Program-made: the position numbers and the translations under genes
Shown: positions 1 to 60,921 of the stretch, piece by piece
Position numbering within the stretch: position 1 is the first letter of the stretch
How the letters are laid out: each line of letters starts with the position of its first letter
Notes under the pieces: generated by a model
The model's database searches: none
What the model was told of the DNA's origin: nothing
The model's input: only the letters and a program-made list of their open reading frames with translations
DNA from: a virus
IMG/VR virus record: IMGVR_UViG_3300006052_000004
Location: 1-62,857 of that record
Direction: 5' to 3' (one strand)
Length of the DNA stretch: 62,857 nt

Positions 1-1231
1 GTCGGAGATGATGGGTGAAGGCACCGCGATGACCATCTACCGTCGGCAGATGCAGCTCGCCAACCGAGACCCCGATGTGAAGATGCGTCATGTGACCATC
101 GACTCACCCGGCGGCGAGATCAGTGGCGTGTTCGATGCGGCCCATGATATGGCCCACGGCAAGCCAACATTCGTATATGCAGAAGACATGTGCATGTCCG
201 GCGGCATGGCTCTAGCAGCGGCCGCCAAGCATGTGACTGTTAACTCAACCGGTGGAATGGGTTCTGTCGGCGTGTACACGGCGATACCTGACACGTCGGT
301 GGCCGATGCCAGACAGGGCCGCACGGTCCACGTCGTGAAGGCCGGTAAGTACAAGGCCATCGGCGTGCAGGGGTCGCCTGTCACAGCCGAACAACTCCAA
401 TCTGTGCAAGATCGTGTTAATGAGCAGCATCGGTTGTTCGTTCGGCACATCGCCAAACATCGTGTAAACATCACACCTGAACAACTTGCAGAAGTTGCAG
501 ATGCCGGTGTCTACATCGGCCGTAATGCGGTCAAGGCCGGCTTAGCCGACGCAGTTGGCACATTCGATACAAGCCACAAGGCAGCCATACAGGCTGCCAA
601 AGAAGGGAAAACATTCTCAATGGCAATCACCAATGAAGAGCTGCGTGCGTGGCTTACCGATCCCGCACCTGCCCCTCAAGCACCGCCGGTTCCCCCGGCA
701 CCCGATCAGACCGCAACCCCGCCGGCCATTCCTGCGGCTGCATCTGTAAGTTACAATGTAACAGCTGAGCAGATGACCCTGTTGGCGGCATTCAATGCGA
801 TCAACCTGAAGACCACCAATGACCTGCGGACACTCATCAATGAGGCACTGACCGGTCGCACAGTCCTCGCAGAAGAGCGCGAGCAGTGTATTAAGATGGC
901 CACCGCTCTGTTTACCGGTGATGATGCCAACCTATCGGCGGTTGCAGAGTTTATCAACTCGGCGCCACTCGGCGTGATCCGCTCTCAGTCACAGATGTAT
1001 GCAGGTTCGCTGCGGGCCCAAGGCCTAGCGGCACCAGAAGGGTCGGCAACGACCCGCCGCTTCTCGACGCCACCGCCTGTGACAACCGAGGGAGGGACAC
1101 CCACGGATGTTCATGTGGCGGAGGCGCCCGAGAAGCCCACCGATCTCGTCCACAAGGCGGAAGAAACACACCGTAAGAAGAACTACGGTCATGTAGTCAA
1201 CCTTCCGAATGTGAAAGGAGCCACCATCTAA
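1..1231 (+). CDS. Prohead (head maturation) protease, peptidase S49/SppA family (lambda gpC-like), with a C-terminal scaffold-like half. This is the 3' part of a gene that starts at 62502 and crosses the contig junction.
   Basis: Motifs HVTIDSPGGEISGV and MCMSGGMALAAAA...GGMGSVGVY are typical of S49/ClpP-fold proteases. The frame is continuous with 62502..62857 through the 24-nt end overlap. The gene lies between the portal and capsid genes. Confidence 0.85.
   Translation, partial: SEMMGEGTAMTIYRRQMQLANRDPDVKMRHVTIDSPGGEISGVFDAAHDMAHGKPTFVYAEDMCMSGGMALAAAAKHVTVNSTGGMGSVGVYTAIPDTSVADARQGRTVHVVKAGKYKAIGVQGSPVTAEQLQSVQDRVNEQHRLFVRHIAKHRVNITPEQLAEVADAGVYIGRNAVKAGLADAVGTFDTSHKAAIQAAKEGKTFSMAITNEELRAWLTDPAPAPQAPPVPPAPDQTATPPAIPAAASVSYNVTAEQMTLLAAFNAINLKTTNDLRTLINEALTGRTVLAEEREQCIKMATALFTGDDANLSAVAEFINSAPLGVIRSQSQMYAGSLRAQGLAAPEGSATTRRFSTPPPVTTEGGTPTDVHVAEAPEKPTDLVHKAEETHRKKNYGHVVNLPNVKGATI
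620..1231 (+). CDS. Possible nested in-frame scaffold protein (lambda Nu3-like internal start inside the protease gene)
   Basis: In-frame ATG at 620 (MAITNEELRAW...) is preceded by AGAAGGGA. It lies just before a Pro-rich linker and a helical C-terminal half. The call rests only on analogy to lambda C/Nu3. Confidence 0.3.
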   Translation: MAITNEELRAWLTDPAPAPQAPPVPPAPDQTATPPAIPAAASVSYNVTAEQMTLLAAFNAINLKTTNDLRTLINEALTGRTVLAEEREQCIKMATALFTGDDANLSAVAEFINSAPLGVIRSQSQMYAGSLRAQGLAAPEGSATTRRFSTPPPVTTEGGTPTDVHVAEAPEKPTDLVHKAEETHRKKNYGHVVNLPNVKGATI

Positions 1232-22860: not shown

Positions 22861-23038
22861 GCTCGAAGTGATTAGGTATCTTCATCACTTGTGGGGCAAT
22901 GATACAGAAGACCACATTCGTACCGTTGTATATAATACCGACCCGGTGATACTTTGACGAGTCAAGTATATCACGTGCCTTGTCTCTCGCTTCTTGGATC
23001 GTGCGGATGAGTGTGGAACTTGAGCTAGGCTTTCGCAT
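22817..23038 (-). CDS. Hypothetical small protein
   Basis: 73-aa ORF linking the hydroxymethylase homolog and the nuclease genes, with short overlaps on both sides. Confidence 0.4.
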   Translation of the reverse strand: MRKPSSSSTLIRTIQEARDKARDILDSSKYHRVGIIYNGTNVVFCIIAPQVMKIPNHFELVEWVYKEGEDARV

Positions 23039-23987
23039 CTGGCCAGTTCCATCGTAAGATGTCGCACCATTGTTTTACCCAATCACTTCCCTCATGATCG
23101 GATTGAAACTTGTATGCCTTCCGCTCCTTCACCACGAAGTGATCGTGCATATCAAGTAAGAGTTTATGTGCAAGTGCCTGCGTGAACCTGATGTCATCAC
23201 CGGCGAATGATGTTGGCATCCTCGGCGGGTTTGGTAGATATGCCTCATGGTCAGGGTTGTTGATGTTCGGTGGTCCCTCACCATTGTTCCCATTCAGGTA
23301 GTAGTGCATAGATACTGCCACATGCCAATAGCTTCCGATACGTATATCGAGTGCATTGGCCATGGCAATCTGTATGGCGCACATCGCGGCAATATCGTAT
23401 GGAACGCCCCAGTTCAGGTCGTTGCTCCTGATGTTGACCATCGCCGACAGCACGTATATCTGTTGGGCATCACCACCATCTGTACTGAGGATGTTACGCT
23501 TTTCGGTGAAGAATTGCATACCAACCATGCACGGACTCTCTTGGTATGAGTGTTCGGTATGGCGTTCCCATATTGGGATAAAGGCCTGCCGGCGGTCCGG
23601 GTTCTGCTTGAGTGTGTCGAATGCACGTGGCAGGCCGTACCTGAAGCCATCGCCATACTTCACCATGCCGAATAACTCACCCGAGTTATGGTCCGTGAAA
23701 TTCCTGTAGTTGCTATTGAGCTTGGTCAACAGTTCGGCATACTCACGACCCATGTATGTACCCCAGCCGGCTATGTACCCAAGTGTCTCTGCCACCCAGA
23801 AACGATAGTTCATTCGGCGTGGTATACCGGTGAACAGACTAAGTTCGGGCCGTGTGATCTTCATCATGAACGGCCGTACTTCCATACAATCGGCACCACG
23901 ATGTGTGAACACCGTCCCTGTCTGCCTGACGTGCTGGTACATGCCCCAGTATGCCCTGTTCATCGTTGGGAATACAAGCGTTGTCAT
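23025..23987 (-). CDS. Thymidylate synthase / deoxypyrimidine hydroxymethylase family enzyme, predicted dCMP-specific (T4 gp42-like)
   Basis: QNPDRRQAFIPIW, catalytic Cys in ESPCMVGMQFF, and IRSNDLNWGVPYDIAA, where Asp replaces the ThyA Asn (LGLPFNIAS). ATG at 23987 overlaps the deaminase stop (ATGA). The longer track ORF to 24464 is out-of-frame read-through. Confidence 0.7.
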   Translation of the reverse strand: MTTLVFPTMNRAYWGMYQHVRQTGTVFTHRGADCMEVRPFMMKITRPELSLFTGIPRRMNYRFWVAETLGYIAGWGTYMGREYAELLTKLNSNYRNFTDHNSGELFGMVKYGDGFRYGLPRAFDTLKQNPDRRQAFIPIWERHTEHSYQESPCMVGMQFFTEKRNILSTDGGDAQQIYVLSAMVNIRSNDLNWGVPYDIAAMCAIQIAMANALDIRIGSYWHVAVSMHYYLNGNNGEGPPNINNPDHEAYLPNPPRMPTSFAGDDIRFTQALAHKLLLDMHDHFVVKERKAYKFQSDHEGSDWVKQWCDILRWNWPDAKA

Positions 23988-24493
23988 TCTGGTGATATGC
24001 TCCTTCTCTCCCCGTTCCAGTATGAGCATGCCGCGATCATCGACAACTCGACGTTGCTCTGGCTGTACTCGACAGTTTGTATCATGCACTCGTCTCGCAC
24101 TATGTTGAACTTCAGCTCGTCCATATACTTCCATGGTACGCCGTCCCACAGCCAGACCACCCTGTGTATCCCGGCGTTGGCTACCTGCGCAAGACATGTG
24201 TGGCACGGCTTGAGCGTCACATAGCACGTGCCGCCGATAAGCGAGAATGGCGCCTTCACTATAGCGTTCAGCTCGGCATGCTGCACTATCGCGTTCTTGA
24301 GGTCCTTGTCGGCCCAGTTCTCTGGCGTGTCTGGGAAGCCCGTCGGAAAGCCGTTGTACCCCATAGACACAAGCCTGTTGGTGCTGTCGACGGCCGCCGC
24401 GCCCACCTTTCGCTCTGGGTCCTTGCTCATCGTCATGGCGAATGCAAGCGCGGCCCTGAGCCATGCGCGATCTATTCTCTCCTGCCTATCCAC
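23984..24493 (-). CDS. dCMP deaminase
   Basis: Zinc motifs HAELNAI and PCHTCLAQV. About 169 aa, the usual size. Confidence 0.85.
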   Translation of the reverse strand: MDRQERIDRAWLRAALAFAMTMSKDPERKVGAAAVDSTNRLVSMGYNGFPTGFPDTPENWADKDLKNAIVQHAELNAIVKAPFSLIGGTCYVTLKPCHTCLAQVANAGIHRVVWLWDGVPWKYMDELKFNIVRDECMIQTVEYSQSNVELSMIAACSYWNGERRSISPE

Positions 24494-24842
24494 TCATCGC
24501 CTCCTCTAATGCCATCTCGATCTCGACAACCTTACCGGCATATTCGTCGATACCTTCATCATCACCTGCGACACACCGTTTGAGTAGTACCGCATTGTAG
24601 ACCTGCAGGTCCATCCGTAGTCTTGCTACTGTCGGTGTGACAATTTCTACCTCACCATTCTGTAGTTGTTCGATTGTGACTTCTTTAAGGTCACACTCGT
24701 TTCTGACTATGCTACCCAGCTCGGGGACGTCAATGACAAACATCCGGCTCTTGAAGCGTCCCTCTACATTTTGTACGACTGCACCAAGGCAGTTCTCATA
24801 CGCATCACGCGGTTTGATTACCACGAGGTCCCCGACTTGCAT
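24486..24842 (-). CDS. Hypothetical protein
   Basis: 118-aa ORF tightly packed inside the nucleotide-metabolism cluster. Confidence 0.6.
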   Translation of the reverse strand: MQVGDLVVIKPRDAYENCLGAVVQNVEGRFKSRMFVIDVPELGSIVRNECDLKEVTIEQLQNGEVEIVTPTVARLRMDLQVYNAVLLKRCVAGDDEGIDEYAGKVVEIEMALEEAMSG

Positions 24843-24843
24843 G

Positions 24844-25338
24844 TCAGTCCTCCTTCATGATAGTGACGATGTCCGTACATAGATCACTCGTTGACACCGA
24901 TGATTGGTTTGATTTACGGACCATCTCATACTCGTTCGACAGATGATCTGCGAGAATGATCGCCTTTGCAGTTAAGTTCTGCTCGGGAGATAATGGCGAA
25001 CCATGCCGATGCTGATGTCTGCCACTATCATATTGGTCCACCGTCGCCGACAATCGCCATAGGGCATGATGCAGATGTTCGACCGGGTCACCGTCCTCTT
25101 CAGACGTGTCTCCGGCCAGGAAGGCGAGTATGTGCATCATCGAGTGGTTGAGATGACTCTCTGGCCCGATCGCCTGCCATGTATTCGCTCCATATTTTGC
25201 TGCGCCACGGCCTGCGATCGTTGCCATAGCCTGCATTGCGAATGGGTGGAGTAGATCGTATCTTGCATCTACATGGCTCTGCGGTGGTCCATCAGTTGTG
25301 AGAGGTGTGTCCTTGCCTGCTCCTCTTATTTTGCTCAT
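24844..25338 (-). CDS. dATP/dGTP diphosphohydrolase-like N-terminal domain protein (DUF5664-like)
   Basis: ARYDLLHPFAMQAMATIAGRGAAKYGANTWQ...HILAFLAGDTSEEDGDPVEHLHHALWRL resembles that domain family, recognised from memory. Confidence 0.5.
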   Translation of the reverse strand: MSKIRGAGKDTPLTTDGPPQSHVDARYDLLHPFAMQAMATIAGRGAAKYGANTWQAIGPESHLNHSMMHILAFLAGDTSEEDGDPVEHLHHALWRLSATVDQYDSGRHQHRHGSPLSPEQNLTAKAIILADHLSNEYEMVRKSNQSSVSTSDLCTDIVTIMKED

Positions 25339-25570
25339 TCTTCTGTCTCTCCTGTTTCTTGTATAATGCCTCTGTCAACTCCCAGTCGACATCGGTATCA
25401 ACCTGCAGCAATCCATTGCCTTCGATCTTGAACCACATATTGTGGTCCATGCCGACCGTCCCTATTACATTACGCAGGTGACCGTTGTCATCGATCACCT
25501 GCCTACCGATGAATAGGACGGCCTCGCTCTCTTTGAGACGTGCCGACTTCTCCACTAGTCTCCCTCCCAT
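25292..25570 (-). CDS. Hypothetical protein
   Basis: 92-aa ORF. Its 3' end overlaps the next gene by 47 nt. Confidence 0.45.
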   Translation of the reverse strand: MGGRLVEKSARLKESEAVLFIGRQVIDDNGHLRNVIGTVGMDHNMWFKIEGNGLLQVDTDVDWELTEALYKKQERQKNEQNKRSRQGHTSHN

Positions 25571-26223
25571 CCGTCATCGAGAAGTGCCTGCCGTATCTCC
25601 TCTTGTGGTGGTACCCATCCCTCTGGCTTGAGCACCTTACCTTTGTCATCCTTACGGTGGCCTGTCTTCATCATGTTGTACTTGTGCACGATGTTAAAGT
25701 ATTTCGTGGCATCGAGACCGAATGCCTCGAATGCACCGATGGTCACGTACATCAGGTCACAGAGTCCATCTACCGCCTCAACGAGGTCGCCCGCATCGAT
25801 CGCGTCGGCCGCCTCGTTAGCCTCTTCGCGAATGAGTTTCTCACGGAGGATACTGTCACGTATCATCGGCGGGTCGCCGAGCTCGCCGAGTACTTTATGG
25901 TTACCGCGCACCTGGTCTGTTTTTGTCATGAAGTCACGGACCTGTGTCTGCATCGGGTTCTCACCGAGGGCCATCAATGGTGGTATGAATTCTGTCTGCA
26001 CTGTGCCTCCTTTAGGTATCACCGGTAGGGATGCCTGTATGATATGTTGTACTGTCCTACAATTGATGAACTCTTGCTTTGTGATGATCGGTTCGACTTC
26101 GTGGCCACAACCAGGACAGGCCTGATGTGTACATCGTTCTGCCACGAGTTTGGTTATCGGTACCCGTATCTTTATGCTGGAAAATTCATCGGATCCGGTG
26201 CCACCGGTTCTTTCGTCTGACAT
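25555..26223 (-). CDS. MazG-like all-alpha nucleoside triphosphate pyrophosphohydrolase with N-terminal Cys-rich segment
   Basis: EEANEAADAIDAGDLVEAVDGLCDLMYVTIGA...HKYNMMK is a MazG-type signature. ATG at 26223 is preceded by GGAGG, but the start is uncertain. Confidence 0.65.
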   Translation of the reverse strand: MSDERTGGTGSDEFSSIKIRVPITKLVAERCTHQACPGCGHEVEPIITKQEFINCRTVQHIIQASLPVIPKGGTVQTEFIPPLMALGENPMQTQVRDFMTKTDQVRGNHKVLGELGDPPMIRDSILREKLIREEANEAADAIDAGDLVEAVDGLCDLMYVTIGAFEAFGLDATKYFNIVHKYNMMKTGHRKDDKGKVLKPEGWVPPQEEIRQALLDDGWEGD

Positions 26224-26438
26224 TCTGTGTGTTCCTCCACGGTCTCCTGCTCCTGTTTGAAGACATCTTCCACTTTGTGGTTGCCAGGCATAGGTGTGAA
26301 TATGTGTACTTCTGACACATCGGGATTGTCTGCGAAGATACACCGTACACCTCGCAGTTGTTCTGGCCATTCGGCATAGTATACGCCGATGTGACCGTAT
26401 GAACTATCATTCACACCTTGCATGTGTGTGACCTTCAC
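26172..26438 (-). CDS. Hypothetical protein
   Basis: 88-aa ORF. It overlaps the predicted MazG start by 52 nt, so one of the two starts is probably wrong. Confidence 0.4.
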   Translation of the reverse strand: MKVTHMQGVNDSSYGHIGVYYAEWPEQLRGVRCIFADNPDVSEVHIFTPMPGNHKVEDVFKQEQETVEEHTECQTKEPVAPDPMNFPA

Positions 26439-40803: not shown

Positions 40804-41844
40804 TTACTCCCATCCGCTTGGAATGTGCAGCTTGTAGTGCGGCTCCAACCATCCATTGTATGCCGGGATGGTAATACACTTCGGCTTCCAACAACCCACA
40901 ACCTCGGGTGCCTGACGTATCGTGTTACGCGCAAATTTGAAGAACTCACCGAGACACTGTAGCAGGTTTGGCCCGTCCAGGCTGATCGACGTACCATACC
41001 CAAGCCATAAGGACCTGAACCCACGCTTCTGCCCGAGCTCATAATGCTGTTTATAGTAGTCGCCGAGGCCGTGCAATGCCCTCTGGATTGTGCGATCATC
41101 ACCTTGTACACCCATAAGCATGAGACCGGCAAGTGCATGAATACCTACATGCTCGAAATGCAGACGTGGCGACTCGTCTTCCTCACATAAGATATTGCAT
41201 GTCGGCACAATCCGCCGTGACCTATTTCGCCATATTGGCAACATCCAGTCGATCACGACCTCCCATACACAATCGGCGTGCATGCCTGGTATCTGATGGA
41301 GAAATCGGATGAGTGTAGAGATGTCACCTTGATCCTTGATTGCTAGTGTCTCAAGGTTGTTCAGTGACTCGTATGCACCGAGAAGCATTGCTGCGAACCG
41401 TTCACCTTTGGTAGGTGGTTCGATGCCTTCTTCTGGCTCATAGTGTGGCATCGTGCGACCGAAAGGCTTCTGCTTCTTCAGCAGCATATCATCGAGTGTT
41501 ATGCCGATCGCCATCATGTAGTCTTCGCTACCATGTGCGGCCTCGGTGACGAGCTCTTTGACCTCTTCGTACGAGCCAATGTTGTTGAGCATCCGGAAGG
41601 TGATCTGATGTGCGACGATCTGCCAGAATTGCTCGTGCTCGGGGTTCTCCATGATCTCCTCGACGCAGTACTGCGTGAAGAGGTCCTGCTCGCGGTAGAC
41701 GTTGCGCCTCGCGGCGAACTCCGGGGCCTGTGTACCGAGGTGTACTACGTTCTCGCGGTACCACTCCTCCTGCCTCGTTGCCACATAGTCCCAGAACGCC
41801 TTCTCGACGTTCTCATTTGGTGCAACCCAAAAATCATGCGCCAC
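40804..41844 (-). CDS. Hypothetical helical protein; possible DNA base hypermodification family (aGPT-Pplase-like)
   Basis: The N-terminal FWDYVATRQEEWYRE...FAARRNVYREQDLFTQY resembles the W..I..R..I...R....F.NVYRE.D..T pattern I recall for that family. The call rests on memory only. Confidence 0.3.
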   Translation of the reverse strand: MAHDFWVAPNENVEKAFWDYVATRQEEWYRENVVHLGTQAPEFAARRNVYREQDLFTQYCVEEIMENPEHEQFWQIVAHQITFRMLNNIGSYEEVKELVTEAAHGSEDYMMAIGITLDDMLLKKQKPFGRTMPHYEPEEGIEPPTKGERFAAMLLGAYESLNNLETLAIKDQGDISTLIRFLHQIPGMHADCVWEVVIDWMLPIWRNRSRRIVPTCNILCEEDESPRLHFEHVGIHALAGLMLMGVQGDDRTIQRALHGLGDYYKQHYELGQKRGFRSLWLGYGTSISLDGPNLLQCLGEFFKFARNTIRQAPEVVGCWKPKCITIPAYNGWLEPHYKLHIPSGWE

Positions 41845-47964: not shown

Positions 47965-48393
47965 CTACCGCATGTTATTACGATCTCTACAGATGCGGCA
48001 ACGCCTATTGCCACCGGGATCAATATATGTTGTATCAGATGTCCATATATGTCCGAATGAGCACATATCTAGTTCATTATGTGCACCAAGTCGTCTTGAA
48101 TGTGTACCTGTGACAATCATATCATTGATGTTGTCCTGTGGTGTGCCTTGGTATAGATGCTCTGGATTTACACATGAGCGACTAGTACACACAGGTTTAT
48201 GTAGTATCTGCATACCTTCGGTTATCTCACCGATATGTAACAGATAAGACATACGATGGGCGAGTATATCACCATGGCCTGTGCTAAAGCTAATAAAACG
48301 GCCATAACCATCTTTTGACTTAGCACCTTTCCATAGCCAACATTCACCAACTATGTCTATTTTTTCCATGAACCTTTCGTACATAGATTTCAT
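47965..48393 (-). CDS. HNH homing-type endonuclease 1
   Basis: CWLWKG...DGYGRF...AHRMSY...HKPVCTSRSCVNPEHLYQGT..DN (HNH_3-type pattern). Confidence 0.75.
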   Translation of the reverse strand: MKSMYERFMEKIDIVGECWLWKGAKSKDGYGRFISFSTGHGDILAHRMSYLLHIGEITEGMQILHKPVCTSRSCVNPEHLYQGTPQDNINDMIVTGTHSRRLGAHNELDMCSFGHIWTSDTTYIDPGGNRRCRICRDRNNMR

Positions 48394-50166: not shown

Positions 50167-50634
50167 CTATTTATTATGGTATCGCTTGTTCGCCTCATTC
50201 TTACAGATGCGGCATTGACGACCTTGTTTTGTTACTATCGTATTCTGCTCATCGTATTGATGCCCCTTCGGGCAATGTGTCTTTATCACTTGGTATATAC
50301 CAGGTGATATATTGCCAACCATCCTACCTTGTTCTGATGCCTGCTTCATATTCTGTGCTTGTGTACCACATTTCAGATGTGCGGGATTGACACATGCAGA
50401 ATTATTACATTCATGCAGAATGACCTTATCATCAGGTATCTGCTCGTGATTGGCAAGCATCCATGCTATGCGATGTGCACGTAATCTAATTGTACGACCA
50501 TCTCTGTTTATGTGGAACAGACCATAGCCTTTATCACGCATACTTAACCATTCCCAGCATTCATCTTCAGTCAATTCTTCATACTTTGAATGAAAACGCT
50601 GTATGTCTTTATCCGTTAACTGCACTAAAATCAC
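50167..50634 (-). CDS. HNH homing-type endonuclease 2
   Basis: CWEW...KGYGLF...AHRIAW...HECNNSACVNPAHLKCGT.AQN. Confidence 0.75.
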   Translation of the reverse strand: MILVQLTDKDIQRFHSKYEELTEDECWEWLSMRDKGYGLFHINRDGRTIRLRAHRIAWMLANHEQIPDDKVILHECNNSACVNPAHLKCGTQAQNMKQASEQGRMVGNISPGIYQVIKTHCPKGHQYDEQNTIVTKQGRQCRICKNEANKRYHNK

Positions 50635-53630: not shown

Positions 53631-53927
53631 CTAATGCAGGTGTAGATTGTTGTGGTCAGCGAATTCTAGTACCGAATTGCTATTGTTGTTCCATGCTGTG
53701 AAGATGGACAGACCACATCGTTCTGTGACCAAATCTTTCGCAAATTGCCAATCGCGACCGATATAGACAATGGTCACAGTCCTATATTCCTCGTTGTAAT
53801 ATCCGACGACGATCGCAGAGATGACCTGGACTTTCACATCGAGTGATTGGTGCTGTCCATCTTTACACTCTTTCTCCCATCGCTTACAACCGATGGCGAA
53901 AGAGTCATAGGTTTGTTCTTTGTTCAT
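53631..53927 (-). CDS. Hypothetical protein
   Basis: 98-aa ORF with a 4-nt overlap with the upstream gene. Confidence 0.55.
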   Translation of the reverse strand: MNKEQTYDSFAIGCKRWEKECKDGQHQSLDVKVQVISAIVVGYYNEEYRTVTIVYIGRDWQFAKDLVTERCGLSIFTAWNNNSNSVLEFADHNNLHLH

Positions 53928-54439
53928 TTGTTTGTCGCTTTCTGTGCTTTGACACGGTTGAGTTCTTCGAGAAGCGCATTCGCTTTCGCGATCTGTTCTT
54001 CGAGTTTTGCGACCTGAGCAAGGATCTTTTCCACGTTGTCTTTATTGACTTTCGGCTGCGAGTTGCTTAGTCGAGTAGCTCGCGGTGTGGGTTGACGATC
54101 CTGTGTCTGAGGATTGAGCGGACGAAGCATCAGGCGACCGTGTTGATCGACATACATCGCACCGCGGTTGTATGTTGCCTGGTCTTCGACGTGAGCTACT
54201 CGAACACCATTCGAGTAGACGAGGTCCCCGGCAGCATCCAGGTGGGTGGCACCGAAGATAGCTGGCGGAGCTTTATGGGGGTTTCGTTTGTTACGACGAA
54301 CATGGAACTTTGCCTGGGCAATGAGTTGCTTTTCCAGCTCAGTTGTGACGTGAGTCGGTTCACATGAGCGAAGTTGGGTGTCAAACCCATCTTTTAGCTC
54401 TTGTTCTCGACGTCGCTGATCGTCTGCTATTTTGCTCAT
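53924..54439 (-). CDS. Hypothetical protein with C-terminal coiled coil
   Basis: 171-aa ORF, the first gene after promoter cassette copy B. Confidence 0.6.
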   Translation of the reverse strand: MSKIADDQRRREQELKDGFDTQLRSCEPTHVTTELEKQLIAQAKFHVRRNKRNPHKAPPAIFGATHLDAAGDLVYSNGVRVAHVEDQATYNRGAMYVDQHGRLMLRPLNPQTQDRQPTPRATRLSNSQPKVNKDNVEKILAQVAKLEEQIAKANALLEELNRVKAQKATNK

Positions 54440-54504
54440 AGCACACTCCTTCGACCGGATCGCTGAATTTCAGACATAGCTGTCGCTGACTGATACGATC
54501 CTGG

Positions 54505-54611: not shown

Positions 54612-55169
54612 TCATTTCGCCGTCGCCGATGGTGAGTTTGTGATGTCATCATAGATGATTGACGAGTAGTCCTGGATACCACCTTTGACCATCACATCCA
54701 TGCGTTTGATACACACGAGATGGTTTGGATTAACACACCGAGGTGTGTTGCAGATATGCTTGATGATGAAGCCTTCTGGTGGTAGCATGTGGTTTATGGC
54801 AATCCACGCGGCTCTGTGTGCACGTATCTTGAAATGCGATTTGTCGCCTTTTCCCCAAGTACCCGCCGGTGAGAATGTGACATTGAGGATGCCATAGTAT
54901 TGGTTTTGCGCGTAATTTTGGGCCTGTTCGATGGTTTGTCGTTTCGGCGGCGTTTCAATTGTGCCTGGCCAGAGGATACACTGCGTAGGAAATATGAATG
55001 GGATGAGGTCCCGGCGGTTTTGGCGTATAGAGGGAATTGCTCTTTGGAAATGGTGTACTAATGTGGACTGGTTTTCGGTGATCTCTAGCCAATGAGGAGA
55101 CTTGCTCTCCATTTCATAGCGAAATTGCGCGATGATTTCGTCGATTGACAGTGTTTCCTGTAGTGACAT
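54612..55169 (-). CDS. HNH homing-type endonuclease 3
   Basis: IRAHRAAWIAINHMLPPEGFIIKHICNTPRCVNPNHL. Confidence 0.7.
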   Translation of the reverse strand: MSLQETLSIDEIIAQFRYEMESKSPHWLEITENQSTLVHHFQRAIPSIRQNRRDLIPFIFPTQCILWPGTIETPPKRQTIEQAQNYAQNQYYGILNVTFSPAGTWGKGDKSHFKIRAHRAAWIAINHMLPPEGFIIKHICNTPRCVNPNHLVCIKRMDVMVKGGIQDYSSIIYDDITNSPSATAK

Positions 55170-55281
55170 GATGATGATTGAGGTTCCTTTTAAGTACGCT
55201 TTGGTATTGTGGTGATAGTAGATCGGTGTCTACTTGTGACAATCGGCTGTGAGAAGGATGCTTTTGGATTGATATAAGATT

Positions 55282-55311
55282 ATTATATCGTAGAAGTGCG
55301 AGAACTGTCAA
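55282..55311 (-). promoter_or_regulatory. Consensus sigma70-type promoter (leftward)
   Basis: The minus strand reads TTGACA (55311-55306), 18 nt, TATAAT (55287-55282). Confidence 0.7.
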
Positions 55312-55646
55312 GAGTAGAAAATATTGTGTAGAATGGTGTCTACTAAAAGCTCATTGTCTGGGCTTTTTTTGCTATAAGGCAGGTATATATATAGGTCATG
55401 ATTTGTGTTTGTTTTGTTAAGTAACAAACTAAAGCTTGTTTTTTGATTATACCCCCCCCATATGCCATGCTCCCGAAAATCGTAGACAATGAGGAAGCGT
55501 TTTTTTTGTGAAAATAATCGCAAAGGCTTGGCCATGTACGCCATCACCTCTCCCAAAATGCACAAAATTTTTGTCATGGCAGCCAAATTAATTTGCCAAA
55601 TTAATTTGCCAGGGCCGCCGAATTCCTCTCGCGGCCGGCCGAGCAT
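55308..55646 (-). CDS. Doubtful ORF in AT-rich, homopolymer-rich DNA
   Basis: 112-aa ORF containing C8/T9/T7 runs. No RBS or motif support. Confidence 0.25.
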   Translation of the reverse strand: MLGRPREEFGGPGKLIWQINLAAMTKILCILGEVMAYMAKPLRLFSQKKRFLIVYDFREHGIWGGYNQKTSFSLLLNKTNTNHDLYIYLPYSKKSPDNELLVDTILHNIFYS

Positions 55647-55689
55647 GACAACGCTACCGCGACAACAAAACTACACCATCGGCGAAACA

Positions 55690-56030
55690 CCAAAACGCTT
55701 TAGCGCCAGGCTGAGCATATGAAAGCACTTTAGCACAAACGAAGCAGCAGTGAAAAATATACGCCGCAGCGCTAAGCGTATGAAACACTACAGTGCTTTA
55801 GCGCCAGGGACGTTCCGTCTCAGCGCTAAAGCACTAATGGCCAGGCAGTCCAGCGCTTTAGCGCTGGACAAAACATACAGCGCTAAAGCGAAGCAGCAGT
55901 AGCGCTTCGCGCTACTGCGCTTTAGCGCTAGATAAAGCTTAGCGCGTTAGCGCTAAGCAGCAGTGAGCGCTTTAGCGCTGCGTTGCAGCGCTAAGCGCTC
56001 TATAGCGCTACTACGTAGCGCTTAGCTTCG
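55690..56030. repeat. Dense array of AGCGCT-based repeats (AGCGCT-TT-AGCGCT, AGCGCT-A-AGCGCT and short inverted repeats)
   Basis: 14 AGCGCT hexamers lie between 55768 and 56022. Examples are AGCGCTTTAGCGCT at 55852 and 55966, GCTTAGCGC-gtta-GCGCTAAGC at 55937-55958, and AGCGCTAC-tac-GTAGCGCT at 56004-56022. Confidence 0.9.
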
Positions 56031-56353
56031 CCCGAGCAACGCGAGGGTAAACCGACGTCCGAACGCAGTGAGGCGGAGGCGAAGCGTTAAGTTGTCCGAG
56101 CGAAGCGAGTTCGTGGCAGCAATGTGACTTCCGAGCGCGTAATCATAGACGGACACAAGCATCGAGGAATTGCCCAGCAACGATTGGGAGGAATGGAGCG
56201 AAGCGACAGGAGGGTGCCCAATCGCCCGAAGGGTGACGGAAGAAGCTGTGGTAGTAGATGATTACGCTGCGAGATGCAGCGTGTGGATTTGTACAACATA
56301 CCCGAGGCTTGGCGGGGGTGATGCTGTGCGAAGACATACGATGTGTCGAGCAT

Positions 56354-56455
56354 ACGAAGCAGCAGTGAAAAAAAGCGAAGCAGCAGTGAAAAAAAATGCT
56401 CGCTCAAAAAAAAGCGTTAAAAAAAAGCGCTAAAAAGTTGTGATAAAAAAAAATA
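56354..56455. repeat. Iteron-like GAAGCAGCAGTG repeats followed by six A5-A9 tracts (AT-rich, DUE-like)
   Basis: GAAGCAGCAGT occurs at 56356 and 56377, each followed by GA7-8. Further copies are at 55741, 55890 and (TAAGCAGCAGT) 55954. A-tracts start at 56368, 56389, 56406, 56419, 56432 and 56445. Confidence 0.85.
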
Positions 56456-56487
56456 CCGGCGACGATCACGATGATCGTCGCCGGTAT
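56445..56487 (-). terminator. Strong rho-independent terminator of the first leftward operon
   Basis: 15-bp perfect stem ATACCGGCGACGATC/GATCGTCGCCGGTAT (56453-67 / 56473-87) with a 5-nt loop, followed on the minus strand by a U8-9 run. Confidence 0.85.
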
Positions 56488-56619: not shown

Positions 56620-56787
56620 TCAGTACTCCTGCTGTTCCCACTCGACGAAGACTTGGTCGTATTCCTCTTCGAGTTCTGCTGCATGGTTTTTTGTACATGG
56701 TGGCAAGAGCCACAAGAGACGATCATATTCTTCGAGTGTGATCTTTCCACCAACGAAGATTTCCCACAGTTTCTCATGACAGCACAT
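56620..56787 (-). CDS. Small acidic hypothetical protein (55 aa, below the ORF-track cutoff)
   Basis: AGAAAGGGAACGAAC-ATG. The sequence is MCCHEKLWEIFVGGKITLEEYDRLLWLLPPCTKNHAAELEEEYDQVFVEWEQQEY. Confidence 0.4.
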   Translation of the reverse strand: MCCHEKLWEIFVGGKITLEEYDRLLWLLPPCTKNHAAELEEEYDQVFVEWEQQEY

Positions 56788-57879: not shown

Positions 57880-57964
57880 GACCGTGTAGTCGGTCCTTCC
57901 TTCCGACTTCGGGTGATGCGCCATCGTCCCGGTCCTCCTGCGCCCGCTGCCCCGCTCGCCACGG

Positions 57965-57997
57965 GGCAGTGCGATCGCCCCGCACGATCGCACTGCC
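57965..57997 (+). promoter_or_regulatory. 13-bp perfect hairpin in the late leader
   Basis: GGCAGTGCGATCG-ccccgca-CGATCGCACTGCC. A 6-bp hairpin AGTCGG/CCGACT lies about 70 nt upstream. Confidence 0.7.
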
Positions 57998-58132
57998 ATC
58001 CCCGAGCCATAATGCAGCAAGTGTTCAGGTAGTCAGCCGAAAGCGTTGATATAGCCAACCCAACGCCTTGCTCAAACAACCAACCTTTCGCTGCATTGCT
58101 CGTCCTGTAAGCCGTGGGCAAACGCCTGTATT

Positions 58133-58232: not shown

Positions 58233-58997
58233 ATGTCAAACGAAACTTTAGAGATCACAACAAGTTCATTGCAGCACCAGGTCCAGGTGCCAGCCATCAC
58301 CACCACCCTCTCACCAAGGGCTGCTGGTGCCTCACTACACCATAATCCATTCCCCACGGGCCTGCCCGAACTTACCGACCGTGAGTCAATGTGTGCGGCC
58401 CTTGAGGCCGAAGGATTACGGCCGTCGAATGCGGCCCGCATGGCCGGCCTGAATTGGGCACAGTATCGTGTCGCGATCGCGAAACCTGCTTATAAGACAC
58501 TCATTCGTTCCATTCTCTCATCGGCGGCCACAGAGGCAAATGCCGCAGCCATAGCGACCCGCGCGGGTCGCCTGGCCCGCGTCTCCTCATCGTGGGAGGA
58601 TACCAAAGAGATCATACGCCAGCGTGCAGTATCAGCATCTCCTCGGTGTCTCAACCCTGATCCTGAGTACATCGCTTCATTAGGCTTCTCCCACGAAGTC
58701 TTACGTTCCCAATATCCTGATCTCGGTGTTGACTACGACCCGTCCGATCCCGCTTGCCAGAATGTCGATCCATCGTCGTTCGATGTTCCTGGCGCATCGA
58801 CCGGTATGCTAGTCAAGACACTTAAGTCGATCGGCTCAGGGCAAAATGCCCGCACTGTCGTTGAGTGGACCGTAGACGAATCACTCATGCGCATACTCGC
58901 ATCATTGGAGAAGCAGGCGGCCCTTGAGACAGGCCAGGACAAAGAGAAGGGTGGTGTGCAGAAATTGTGGGTGGGCATAGATATTGACGAACTATAG
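58233..58997 (+). CDS. Putative terminase small subunit
   Basis: ATG at 58233 is preceded by GGAG. The N-terminal HTH-like segment is GLRPSNAARMAGLNWAQYRVAI. The gene lies directly upstream of, and overlaps, terL. Confidence 0.5.
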   Translation: MSNETLEITTSSLQHQVQVPAITTTLSPRAAGASLHHNPFPTGLPELTDRESMCAALEAEGLRPSNAARMAGLNWAQYRVAIAKPAYKTLIRSILSSAATEANAAAIATRAGRLARVSSSWEDTKEIIRQRAVSASPRCLNPDPEYIASLGFSHEVLRSQYPDLGVDYDPSDPACQNVDPSSFDVPGASTGMLVKTLKSIGSGQNARTVVEWTVDESLMRILASLEKQAALETGQDKEKGGVQKLWVGIDIDEL

Positions 58998-60921
58998 TCC
59001 TCACCACTCGTCTCTGCCCTCCATACTCTCCACCATCGACTTCTCACAAGTCCCCAACTATGGGTCACAGTCACCCGAACCGCCGCCACAAGAGGCCTTG
59101 CCGCCTCCAATACAACCATCCCATACACCACCACCGGCGCCAACGCACCAGCCGCGATTAGCCGCAGGCGGATCACGGTCGGACCCAAAACGTGCATACA
59201 CGCCATATGGCAATATGGCACGTGCAATGTACGACAAATCGACCATGGTGGTCTTGTGCGGGCCTGCCGGAACAGGAAAATCCCGCACATGGCTTGAGAA
59301 GGTACACCTGCTGTGCGAGAAGTACCCGGGTTGTCGGGCCCTGATTGTCCGAAAGACTCGTGAGTCACTCTCTGAAGCAGCCTTGTTCACTCTGGAGACG
59401 ATGGTCCTTCCTGAAGGGCATCCTATCCTTAACGACAATCGGCGTTCACACCGCACGGTGTATCCCTATCCTAATGGGTCTGAGATAGTCGTCGCAGGCC
59501 TTGACCGTCCGCAGAAGTTGATGTCAACTGAGTTTGACATCATATATGTACAGGAGATCACAGAGTGCGAGCAGGCTGACATCGAGATGTTGATGACCCG
59601 TCTCCGAAACGGTGTCACACGTTACCAACAGCTCGTTGCAGACTGCAACCCAGATAAGCCGATGCATTGGGTGAACCAGTCGGCACTTAAGGGTGTATTC
59701 CCCATGTATCATACATGGCATGAAGATAACCCTGTACTTTGGGAAGAAGCACCGAAATCAGTTCAGCGTATTCTGAACCCACCACCGCCGACCGACCCAT
59801 CGGCGCCGCATCCCAACCATGGGGTCTCGCAGACGATCATAGATCAGCTCGCAGAGATGTGGGCTGCTAAAGCACAGGATGGTCGGCGTGGGCGGTGGAC
59901 AGAACGTGGCATTGACTACATCGCAAAACTCGACAAGTTAACTGGGGCGCGATATAAGCGACTCCGGCTCGGTTTGTGGGCCACGGCAGAGGGCGCCGTA
60001 TATGAGGAGGCATGGGATGCAGACCACAACATCATCAAGAAGCGATTCTCCATCCCTCACCATTGGAGGCGCTTTTGGTCTGTTGACTTCGGCTTCACTG
60101 CTCCATTCGTCCTGCAGAAGTGGGCAATTGACGACGATGGACGAATGCTTTGTTACGAAGAACATTACATCACAAAGCAGCTCGTGTCCACTATGGGTAA
60201 ACTGGCCCTATATACCTCAGGATGGCGATACGATCCCGATGTGGGACACAGACAAATTCGAGGAGATGCTGAGCCGCTTCCAGAGACAATTGTATGTGAT
60301 GTCGATGCTGAGGGAAGAGCAACCCTCGAGCAAGAGACAGGGCTCCACATCACTGGAGCCTATAAAGGCATCTCTGATGGCATCCAAGGAGTACATGAGA
60401 GATTAGTGCGCCAGGCAGATGGTCGTGCGCGCCTATTCTTCTTTCAGGATGCCTTATACCAACGTGACACGTCGTTCGTTAACCATGAGCCGCAATGCAC
60501 GATCGAGGAGTTCGATGGGTACATCTGGGACACGACAGGTAGCCAGAAAAAGGGCGAGAAGCCCTTGGGCAAAGACGATCACGGCATGGATGCCACTCGT
60601 TATGCTGTTTGTTACGTTGACAATATTCGTATGGACACTCGTGCTAAGGATGTATCAATGGTCCAACTCGAGGATGCGCCACTTGGCATGGTGGTAGGCA
60701 TACCGAGGGCGACCGGCATCCCGCAGAGAGATCACGTTCGTGAAGGTACCAATATGGGTCGCAGTCGTAACCGCACCCATCACACTCACCATTCAGAGGT
60801 GAGCGACAAGGATAACGATGGTAACGGGTACTACACCAGCCGGCGGCTCGTCGGGGGGTCGCGGACGCCGCGCGGCCTCGCCGAAGAACGTGCAGCCAAG
60901 ACGGGGCGCTACCAGGACTGA
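58984..60921 (+). CDS. terL: Terminase large subunit
   Basis: Walker A VVLCGPAGTGKS and Walker B IIYVQEITE, with the nuclease half downstream. The start is uncertain (TTG at 58984; the first ATG at 59215 would truncate the conserved AYTPYG segment). Confidence 0.85.
   Translation: MTNYSPHHSSLPSILSTIDFSQVPNYGSQSPEPPPQEALPPPIQPSHTPPPAPTHQPRLAAGGSRSDPKRAYTPYGNMARAMYDKSTMVVLCGPAGTGKSRTWLEKVHLLCEKYPGCRALIVRKTRESLSEAALFTLETMVLPEGHPILNDNRRSHRTVYPYPNGSEIVVAGLDRPQKLMSTEFDIIYVQEITECEQADIEMLMTRLRNGVTRYQQLVADCNPDKPMHWVNQSALKGVFPMYHTWHEDNPVLWEEAPKSVQRILNPPPPTDPSAPHPNHGVSQTIIDQLAEMWAAKAQDGRRGRWTERGIDYIAKLDKLTGARYKRLRLGLWATAEGAVYEEAWDADHNIIKKRFSIPHHWRRFWSVDFGFTAPFVLQKWAIDDDGRMLCYEEHYITKQLVSTMGKLALYTSGWRYDPDVGHRQIRGDAEPLPETIVCDVDAEGRATLEQETGLHITGAYKGISDGIQGVHERLVRQADGRARLFFFQDALYQRDTSFVNHEPQCTIEEFDGYIWDTTGSQKKGEKPLGKDDHGMDATRYAVCYVDNIRMDTRAKDVSMVQLEDAPLGMVVGIPRATGIPQRDHVREGTNMGRSRNRTHHTHHSEVSDKDNDGNGYYTSRRLVGGSRTPRGLAEERAAKTGRYQD

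Follow-up and report, generated by a model that had tools for sequence, protein, structure and literature searches.

The window analyzed here, that is, the full 62,857-nucleotide stretch of the IMG/VR virus record IMGVR_UViG_3300006052_000004, contains a gene-free zone of approximately 1.3 kb (~55170-56465) that harbors a dense array of GCGC tetramer boxes, close to a short leftward operon whose first gene, which we denote gpX, encodes a candidate DNA-binding protein. The ends of the window share a 24-bp overlap and its sequence is identical to that of a 63,292-bp ENA contig; therefore, it represents a circularly assembled, complete phage genome. A circular assembly with a 24-bp overlap fits either a collapsed direct terminal repeat (DTR) or permuted ends. 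The genome is organized in two arms. The rightward arm comprises a TerS-like gene (at 58233), TerL, a portal protein, an S49 protease, a tail module of the RcGTA/phiJL001 type and a GH25 lysin, and stops at 22.3 kb. The leftward arm, which extends from 57.7 kb to 22.4 kb, encodes Pol III alpha, a Toprim-MCM primase-helicase, SNF2 and AAA_24 proteins, a PD-(D/E)XK nuclease, thymidylate-synthase-like and 5-hydroxymethyldeoxyuridine (5-hmdU) DNA-kinase-like proteins, and deoxynucleoside triphosphate (dNTP) pyrophosphatases. Genes are otherwise tightly packed and, since the other intergenic gaps reach only ~220 bp, the ~1.3-kb gene-free stretch is exceptional.

The zone is delimited by transcription signals (Table 1). 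The consensus promoter that an earlier note on this DNA had recognized at the left limit is a perfect match situated on the minus strand, where it drives the long leftward arm, with an HNH_3-type endonuclease gene in first position. The strong terminator described at the right limit was also recovered, with a stem of 16 bp, not 15 bp, followed by T9 on the minus strand. Rather than bounding the field on its own, as had been proposed, this terminator ends the neighboring short leftward operon (57504 to 56466), and it insulates the field jointly with the plus-strand terminator-like hairpin located opposite. The non-coding nature of the field claimed in the same note was borne out, but its extent had been put at about 800 bp and is larger. 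A conserved translated open reading frame (ORF) was searched for and none was found: six-frame translation met stops in all frames (10-27 per 433 codons), and the least-interrupted frame corresponds to a low-complexity Ala/Leu/Ser/Arg sequence produced by the repeat. The ORFs at 55308-55646, 56087-56407 and 56170-56433 were rejected as genes, as they have neither family nor homologue; the first of them (112 aa) overlaps the promoter and is annotated differently in near-identical contigs. The zone contains no tRNA, no Rfam match below E=0.03 and none near the gathering score, and no consensus promoter in its interior, and its DNA showed no similarity to INPHARED phages or PLSDB plasmids.

Table 1. 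Positions of the features of the non-coding zone, of the adjoining genes and of the terminator counterparts in related contigs (window coordinates unless a contig is named).
Feature	Position	Strand	Remarks
Early leftward promoter TTGACA-18-TATAAT	55282..55311	-	12/12 sigma-70 consensus; left limit of the zone
Terminator-like hairpin + T7	55345..55372	+	Faces the array from the left
A+T-rich spacer	55376..55690	.	G+C 34-41%; C8 at 55452-55459, T8 at 55500-55507
Tandem 13-mer GCCAAATTAATTT x2	55582-55607	.	Perfect duplication in the A+T-rich spacer
GCGC tetramer-box array	55695..56022	.	19 exact and ~10 degenerate (one-/two-mismatch) boxes; 14 AGCGCT
(G/T)AAGCAGCAGT elements x3	55741, 55890, 55954 (55741..55964)	+	Each 5' of a GCGC pair
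Purine-rich unique core	56030..56350	.	GCGAAGC x3 (56079, 56100, 56198); GAGCGAAGCGA x2
CGAAGCAGCAGTGA7-8 x2 at 21-bp spacing, then A8, A8, A5, A9	56351..56453	.	T runs on the minus strand just past the terminator
Intrinsic terminator, 16-bp perfect stem then T9	56453..56487	-	Ends the short leftward operon; faces the array from the right
Small predicted ORFs, 50 aa and 55 aa	56466-56618; 56620-56787	-	Short leftward operon
gpX, 139 aa	57085..57504	-	First gene of the short leftward operon; candidate ribbon-helix-helix plus coiled coil
TerS-like gene	58233-58997	+	Weak N-terminal helix-turn-helix signal; divergent from the gpX operon
TerL	58984-60921	+	Divergent from the gpX operon
Counterparts of the left (plus-facing) terminator	L013 7289-7321 + T run; L038 7625-7598; L011 ~930-1100		L011: long hairpin + T7
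Counterparts of the right terminator	L011 1750-1725; L013 7696-7673; L012 ~549-595; L038 7146-7177		

The array itself is best described as a series of GCGC tetramer boxes set in a 7-9-bp register and separated by AT-rich spacers. It holds 19 exact boxes in 351 bp, i.e., 54 per kb versus 2.3 per kb in the remaining genome, a 23-fold local enrichment. Successive boxes are separated by 7-9 bp in 7 of 18 cases, where 2.0 would be expected (P=0.002), and the spacers (TTTA, TAA, GTTA and similar) are 88% A+T. Boxes form pairs and runs of up to four in a 7-8-bp register (AGCGC-TTC-GCGC-TACT-GCGC-TTTA-GCGC), and box pairs recur at ~25-34 bp, with a super-period of roughly 30 bp. The spacing of the units is irregular (13-68 bp), and regular repeat-spacer units of the CRISPR kind were not encountered. 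The count of 14 AGCGCT hexamers between 55768 and 56022 given in the earlier note is exact; a further copy is located at 56426 and two lie elsewhere (49988 and 57107), adding up to 17 in the window. The scarcity of this hexamer outside the field, likewise noted before, holds against base composition (2 seen, ~16 expected) but disappears against a fourth-order Markov model (1.6 expected), which foresees it because GCGC, AGCGC and GCGCT are all rare in the genome. Moreover, eleven other palindromic hexamers are equally rare or rarer, and the relatives of the phage show no AGCGCT depletion. A second, oriented element accompanies the boxes. The five repeats reported earlier correspond to four exact copies of GAAGCAGCAGT (55741, 55890, 56356 and 56377) and one TAAGCAGCAGT variant at 55954, all on the plus strand and with no copy elsewhere; the copies at 56356 and 56377 are 21 bp apart and are followed by GA7 and GA8, respectively. 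Expressed as (G/T)AAGCAGCAGT, the element thus occurs twice more beside A-runs, at a 21-bp distance, and a third copy of the CGAAGCAGCAGTGA7-8 type is found 615 bp from these two. The six A5-A9 tracts reported at 56368-56453 were also confirmed by exact count. Scans of IMG/VR with the exact motifs returned only unrelated hairpins, tandem repeats or operators, and nothing relevant on AGCGCT repeats in phages was found in the literature.

Relatives of the phage, whose contigs are named L0xx, were gathered through their TerL homologues. The same type of array was found at the same syntenic place in five further phages (L011/L010, L012, L013, L038 and L040), with TerL proteins 45-54% identical and G+C contents ranging from 44 to 64%. 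The array is always situated directly downstream of the short leftward operon, itself transcribed divergently from TerS/TerL, upstream of the early promoter of the long arm, and 1.8-2.5 kb upstream of TerS/TerL; GGGTATAATATATG-type promoters are present at the equivalent place in L013, L014, L037, L038 and L040. The units of L011/L010 consist of CAGCAGT plus TTAAGCGCT..GCGCT, and the order of CAGCAGT followed by a box on the plus strand is shared by the window, L011 (5 copies) and L012 (2 copies). The L012 array contains 31 boxes, which keep strictly to a 7-bp period up to a distance of 70 bp, and two perfect palindromes of 40 bp each, those of L013 and L038 contain ~28-30 boxes within GCACTC-AGCGC-nATA-GCGCTAAA units in an 8-9-bp register, and that of L040 is small. 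Across the phages, arrays have 19-31 boxes and spacers of 57-88% A+T, including 63% inside a region of 71% G+C, and, in five arrays, gaps of 7-9 bp are more frequent than randomly placed boxes would give (18 of 30 in L012 and 15 of 27 in L013, both P<5e-5).

Nucleotide similarity among the arrays is restricted to the motifs themselves which, together with the broad range of G+C content, favors a conserved phage-encoded reader over a host-specific one. The window, L012, L013 and L038 all contain stretches of 4-7 successive boxes in register, an arrangement that suits tandem protein sites better than paired hairpin arms. The pair of inward-facing terminators is present in the window, L013 and L038, and the minus-strand terminator also in L011 and L012; in L013 and L038 the array fills the entire space between the plus- and minus-strand terminators, with no AT-rich element. 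Hence, the conserved module is composed of terminator, box array and terminator, a putative transcription-free island. The remaining parts of the field are poorly kept: the sole conserved part of the purine-rich core is the 14-mer CGAGCGAAGCGAGT, common to the window and to the shorter core of L012, no core exists in L011, L013 or L038, and only the terminal A7-A9 run of the A-tract block is conserved in relatives. The array was absent from the DNA examined of three other TerL relatives (L001, L008 and L009). The array exceeds what chance would yield and represents a conserved cis-acting element whose grammar is clear and for which a candidate partner protein exists. The readings offered in the earlier note (origin, packaging or centromere-like site, protein-titrating array) are supported in part, in that the array is non-coding, cis-acting and of a protein-binding type: neither ORF nor Rfam family was detected, and six phages carry it at a single syntenic place.

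Some variation around the arrays was also observed. In L013 (6769-7278) and L038 (7203-8134), one or two plus-strand genes with their own GGGTATAATATATG promoter and terminator are inserted in the array zone, so that a small patch near the promoter is separated from the main array. To the left of the GCGC array of L011 (570-1110) there is a second array of ~12 GGATATAC(G) boxes, many of them in palindromic pairs, and this flank contains a ~170-nt hairpin with perfect ends, after which comes T7. It seems that each phage has its own operator-like repeats in the A+T-rich flank. In the window, each copy of the tandem 13-mer GCCAAATTAATTT holds the 12-bp palindrome CAAATTAATTTG. Three substitutions in the near-identical contig L003 (55570, 55590 and 55594) are the sole differences across the whole non-coding zone; the field itself is invariant in contigs L003-L005, which are thus uninformative on constraint.

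The array sequence folds far better than shuffled controls on both strands (z = -8.5 and -10.1); since the boxes are palindromic, these scores do not separate a function at the DNA level from one at the RNA level. Such folding, together with a location past a terminator that is typical of bacterial interspersed mosaic elements (BIMEs), would be expected of an extragenic hairpin cluster like the repetitive extragenic palindromic (REP) sequences, acting at the single-strand or RNA level or recruiting gyrase, IHF/HU or a REP-associated (RAYT) transposase, possibly as a mimic of host REPs. Paired AGCGCTWWAGCGCT was found at ≥120 loci in a scan of one genome per bacterial species, where it forms the apex of dispersed or tandem palindromes in, among the matches listed, Burkholderiaceae, filamentous cyanobacteria and Chloroflexota; the cyanobacterial and Chloroflexota copies display GTAG plus hairpin grammar and tandem units of ~30 bp, a period comparable to the super-period of the window array. 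The cyanobacterial repeat HIP1 (GCGATCGC) is also enriched in the phage genome (7 copies versus 1.07 expected), which hints at a cyanobacterial host. Against this explanation, GTAG is inconsistent in the window and absent from the L012 and L013 arrays. The array occupies one syntenic site, and is not dispersed, in phages that span 44-64% G+C and must have different hosts. It places 4-7 boxes in register with stems of 4-6 bp only, its degenerate boxes are uncompensated (GCAC-TTTA-GCAC, GCGC-TAAA-GCGA), and no Y1 transposase was detected among the ~80 proteins scanned. While the AGCGC-TTTA-GCGCT apex, the ~30-bp tandem units and the extragenic post-terminator location do recall REP/BIME elements, REPs exist in many dispersed copies with a GTAG start and stems of 8-15 bp, whereas the phage boxes are short and confined to one locus. 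Accordingly, we regard a REP-like function as quite improbable; the phage may, even so, exploit a motif that host factors recognize too. As a separate observation, AGCGCT-WW-AGCGCT was identified, among the matches listed (L044-L123), at the apex of tandem or dispersed extragenic palindromes of REP-like character from Paraburkholderia, Burkholderia, Caballeronia and Trinickia, and preceded by GTAG in Hormoscilla, Coleofasciculus, Nostocaceae and Chloroflexota, so that the apical hairpin recurs across phyla.

The gpX gene is 0.6-1.1 kb from the array and adjoins it in L011, L012, L013, L038 and L040, with protein identities of 31-54%. A profile built from ten gpX homologues was compared with the PDB, and the best natural match was the ribbon-helix-helix (RHH) domain of ParG (E=0.034; E=0.31 when five gpX sequences were used), the alignment spanning the end of the strand, helix A and helix B (VNVNFDEEKHTRFKAACARKGTSITDVVNQLVDNWLKEN versus the gpX consensus), whereas the C-terminus matched designed coiled coils. 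The protein also has a conserved TSKDKAVLGI segment. AlphaFold2 (AF2) modeling with an alignment predicted helices at residues 63-75 and 80-94 (predicted local distance difference test, pLDDT, 77-86; 70-86 across 63-94) and a long helix at 113-138, while a single-sequence model was uninformative (pLDDT 53). No Foldseek match reached significance, yet those that superposed best were nearly all RHH domains, namely ORF56, CopA, ParD, TacA, NikA and AmrZ (template modeling score on the target 0.57-0.75, root-mean-square deviation 1.8-2.3 Å); MatP was also among the matches. Taken together, sub-threshold yet consistent evidence leads us to infer that gpX is probably an RHH protein, and coating of the array by such a protein is plausible. 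No gpX homologues were found in INPHARED, in 185,579 GTDB species genomes, in Dagobah or in P1312, and the search of IMG/VR and JGI added solely the L037 phage. The predicted ribbon reads W-S-S or W-A-Y in L014, L037 and L039, and W-A/V-P in the array-bearing phages, a difference that may reflect altered specificity and is confounded by phylogeny. Two small predicted ORFs of the same operon (50 aa and 55 aa) match no family, and homologues of them were not found in the relatives.

Most RHH proteins are repressors. gpX could accordingly be a repressor or silencer, in the manner of Arc, Mnt or omega, that shuts early promoters, or a roadblock between transcription units. The small box patch of L013 and L038, which lies 20-80 bp upstream of a plus-strand early-type promoter, and the strong early promoter found 380 bp from the window array are compatible with such a role. 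Nevertheless, no window promoter is overlapped by boxes, the main array is placed between two terminators and not over a promoter, and 19-31 boxes are well beyond operator size. We therefore rate a regulatory array as very unlikely.

The explanation that we favor, and to which we would give about an even chance, is that the array is a transcription-insulated platform coated by gpX and probably tied to the genome terminus or to packaging. According to this proposal, the boxes would be read by gpX rather than by TerS or a host factor, with one gpX dimer per box, and the dimers would coat the array cooperatively; on the AGCGCTTTAGCGCT duplex, a paired beta-ribbon is expected within each GCGC major groove. 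The predicted coiled coil would allow bound dimers to bridge or condense the array. More tentatively, the resulting complex may mark or organize the genome terminus or the concatemer junction for packaging or end handling. The terminus role is suggested, circumstantially and weakly, by synteny of the array with the left DTR boundary of the Streptomyces phage Dagobah, the closest cultured relative by TerL (~40% identical). Dagobah possesses a 1187-bp DTR, defined by PhageTerm and 2x coverage, that contains a short leftward three-gene operon beside TerS/TerL; the gene order (long leftward arm, short leftward operon, TerS/TerL) is the same in both phages, and the left boundary of the DTR, i.e., its junction with the long leftward arm, coincides with the position of the array in the window. 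Inward-facing terminators would also be expected around a physical end or concatemer junction. Additionally, the last ~130 bp at the right end of the Dagobah DTR (L033:1050-1187) contain ~8 apparently unannotated TGCAAAG(G) boxes, direct and inverted, with 8-9-bp spacing; this heptamer array lies at the other boundary of the DTR. In the window, the site corresponding to the right DTR boundary of Dagobah, between gpX and the TerS-like gene, carries a GC-rich palindrome, GGCAGTGCGATCG-CCCCG-CACGATCGCACTGCC (57960-58000), with HIP1-like GCGATCGC.

Several observations weigh against the proposed gpX platform. Regarding the protein, the RHH assignment falls below significance in every single test (ParG as given above; Foldseek E>3), Pfam and PHROGs provide no gpX match, the monomer model lacks a strand, and the promoter region of gpX itself has no boxes in the window. 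Moreover, L014, L037 and L039 encode gpX homologues next to a gap with no AGCGCT array and only a few other short repeats. Regarding the terminus, the link depends on Dagobah, whose TerL is 40% identical and which contains neither gpX nor GCGC boxes; at the boundary concerned, it has a spacer of only 43 bp instead of a large non-coding zone. In addition, three independent assemblies cross the zone of the window unbroken. As for the boxes, the 7-9-bp register is equally expected from mini-hairpins with 3-5-nt loops, and REP-like palindromes of many bacteria have the 14-mer AGCGCTWWAGCGCT at their apex. Two types of apparent end were discarded: the contig breaks in or near the arrays of L012 and L015 can be attributed to the repeats and were left out of consideration, and the junction of the 1014-bp ENA contig L005 at 55392 is an assembly artefact caused by 60 nt of Nextera adapter read-through (CTGTCTCTTATACACATCT...).

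The synteny with Dagobah is also compatible with a packaging signal of the pac, cosB-like or DTR-boundary kind, in which the boxes, the GCAGCAGT elements or both would be bound by TerS, gpX being irrelevant, and to this extent the packaging site proposed in the earlier note retains some support as a possible role. The constant position upstream of TerS/TerL described above, the polarity of GCAGCAGT, present on a single strand and pointing toward the terminase genes, and the weak N-terminal helix-turn-helix (HTH) signal of the TerS-like protein all speak for it, and the pac site of P1 is indeed a cluster of one palindromic hexamer, TGATCA/G. Conversely, that site differs in sitting within pacA and depending on Dam methylation, pac sites are usually located in or beside terS and not past a divergent operon, and 19-31 boxes over 330 bp far exceed known TerS sites. 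L009 keeps a TerS-like protein (41% identical) and has neither gpX nor a GCGC array in the upstream gap, within the 4.5 kb examined, whereas in L013 the box is unchanged although the TerS-like protein is just 26% identical. Comparison of the TerS-like profile with the PDB and PHROGs gave weak HTH hints only, and nothing relevant was found in the literature on RHH proteins with terminases. Recognition by TerS itself is thus improbable in our judgment.

The earlier note had also offered an origin composed of iterons and a DNA unwinding element for the primase-MCM protein. In its fullest form, this explanation holds that the GCAGCAGT plus GCGC-pair units are iterons for the Toprim-MCM or a HARE-HTH protein, that the A-tract or the A+T-rich flank melts, and that GCGAAGC mini-hairpins on the plus strand aid priming. 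The composite units are oriented and ~22 nt long, with two copies exactly 21 bp apart, and the seven A/T runs of ≥7 nt that the genome contains all fall within 55364-56453, long homopolymers being otherwise absent. GCGAAGC, a sequence that forms an unusually stable DNA hairpin and is found in the origins of single-stranded DNA phages, is enriched on one strand, with 5 of its 6 plus-strand genome copies inside the region. The zone is, furthermore, near the divergence of the two gene arms, roughly opposite their convergence at 22.3 kb, and siphoviruses of Gram-positive hosts typically have their origins in repeat fields of this non-coding kind. Against an origin, the A-tract block is peculiar to the window genome, neither the core nor GCGAAGC is conserved, and the unwinding element is absent from L012 and from the terminator-bounded islands of L013 and L038, which the array alone fills. 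No DnaA box (TTATCCACA with ≤1 mismatch) was detected in the window, L012, L013 or L014, no Rep-like or initiator gene adjoins the zone, and the primase-MCM gene is 21 kb away. The extremes of the cumulative GC skew are at ~4 kb and 22 kb, and at 53-57 kb there is only a local bump. Thus, in comparison with the iteron origins of lambda (ori), P4 (ori/crr) and iteron plasmids, the array shares clustered dyad repeats in a non-coding stretch and, in the window, two 21-bp-spaced repeats with an A-rich block, but lacks an adjacent initiator, DnaA boxes and a conserved unwinding element, and its register is 7-9 bp instead of the 21-22 bp of iterons. An origin is consequently rather unlikely, and intrinsic bending at the A-tracts was also discarded, because their phasing (21.5, 17, 13, 11.5 and 15 bp) does not favor a clean bend. 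On the whole, we rank a terminus- or packaging-associated organizer above an origin, the latter above REP-like hairpins or host-factor recruitment, and regulation last.

The closest match to the grammar of the array is found among RHH-bound centromeres. ParG recognizes arrays in which 8-20 degenerate boxes of 4 bp, some direct and others inverted, alternate with AT-rich spacers of ~4 bp, and it coats them cooperatively with one RHH dimer on each box (PMC3130281). The phage array resembles ParG-parH/OF of plasmid TP228 in its tetramer-box grammar and in the candidate binder encoded beside it. The differences are that the phage box is GCGC and that of ParG is ACTC, that the phage arrays are broken by 13-30-bp gaps and include a second oriented element (GCAGCAGT or GCACTC), that the phage has no ParF/ParA partner, and that gpX has the C-terminal coiled coil and the TSKDKAVLGI segment in place of the ParG tail. 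The setting is also distinct, namely a virulent-looking phage with the array downstream of an operon and between terminators. In the omega-heptad system of pSM19035 and the ParR-parC systems of R1 and pSK41, RHH proteins polymerize on 7-10 contiguous repeats (7-bp heptads, and 11- or 20-bp iterons). The strict 7-bp periodicity of L012 recalls the omega heptads; unlike the phage array, omega and ParR arrays overlap promoters and use ParA or ParM motors. A further parallel is MatP-matS of the Escherichia coli Ter macrodomain, where an RHH protein with a C-terminal coiled coil can bridge sites, as proposed for gpX, and whose role is the organization of the chromosome terminus, not transcription or partition; MatP differs in its extra four-helix bundle and in that its 13-bp palindromic sites are single and dispersed instead of densely arrayed.

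The centromere-like character put forward in the earlier note accordingly holds for the grammar of RHH tetramer-box arrays and not for partition. A true partition centromere (type Ib/II-like) of a plasmid-prophage would be supported by this parH/parC-like grammar, but neither integrase, other lysogeny genes, ParA/ParB nor methyltransferase was found in the window genome, no ParA-, ParM- or TubZ-type NTPase Pfam domain was detected among the ~80 proteins scanned, Walker A motifs are confined to the MCM, AAA_24 and TerL proteins with no deviant Walker A in the window, and gpX is absent from the species genomes searched. The same very low credence applies to a structured non-coding RNA gene, for which the folding of the plus strand of the core (z = -4.0) could be invoked; there is no Rfam match, the zone contains no promoter and is faced by inward terminators, and the core is not conserved. 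Either possibility is, in our opinion, hardly credible. A bolder version of the gpX platform is conceivable, if on balance doubtful: a motor-less, segrosome-like complex, carried by a family of uncultured, virulent-looking phages that have base-modification genes, in which the gpX-coated array would mark the terminal-repeat boundary and bridge genome ends or sister copies, driving end synapsis, concatemer formation or terminase recognition. The array may then also exploit the hairpin motif that bacteria use in REP elements.

RHH/box-array nucleoprotein complexes are of a known type, and what is new here is the phage setting: a box array sealed by convergent terminators and devoid of a partition motor is an unusual architecture. 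For uncultured phages, hardly any origins, packaging signals, terminus organizers or similar cis-acting sites are known, and annotation ignores them. If gpX does coat the array, RHH centromere-like assemblies would extend to a lytic-phage function, and the signature of GCGC boxes, 7-9-bp register and adjoining gpX gene would help to find the corresponding site in related genomes from metagenomes, and possibly their physical ends too. Should the motor-less version be true, the system would constitute a phage counterpart of MatP-matS or ParG-parH for genome-end handling.

Additional features were observed in the neighborhood of the zone and in the rest of the genome. Two copies of the 17-mer GTAGAnnGGTGTCTACT (55218-55234 and 55328-55344), with inverted GTAGA/TCTAC arms, are situated on either side of the promoter at 55311..55282 and look like operators for a putative repressor. 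A plus-strand promoter-like site at 55145-55172 and the plus-strand terminator at 55345-55372 could give rise to a short RNA of ~200 nt, antisense to the early promoter region. The genome encodes three HNH_3-type endonuclease paralogues (54612-55169, 50167-50634 and 47965-48393); for the copy adjoining the non-coding zone, no relative has a counterpart at that position, and this copy is probably a mobile, homing-type insertion. The near-identical contigs L003 and L005 independently stop or diverge at 54439-54443, at the start of a 171-aa gene (53924-54439), L003 continuing with 95 nt of unrelated sequence; this shared divergence point suggests a strain-level gene replacement.

Genes for base modification and dNTP-pool metabolism are located at 23025-26370 and 40804-41844, and comprise thymidylate-synthase-like, dATP/dGTP diphosphohydrolase-like and MazG/PRA-PH-like proteins together with the 5-hmdU DNA kinase-like protein, a weak match under the Pfam cutoff. 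They suggest that hypermodified thymidine or another non-canonical base is present in virion DNA. Across the whole genome, a strong bias in palindromes is apparent: AGATCT, TTCGAA and TTTAAA do not occur and GCTAGC, TCTAGA, TGATCA and TAATTA occur once each, while ACCGGT (51), CGATCG (39) and CGGCCG (38) are 2-3x over-represented. GATC is present 323 times in the window genome and has zero copies in the 12.4 kb of the relative L038.

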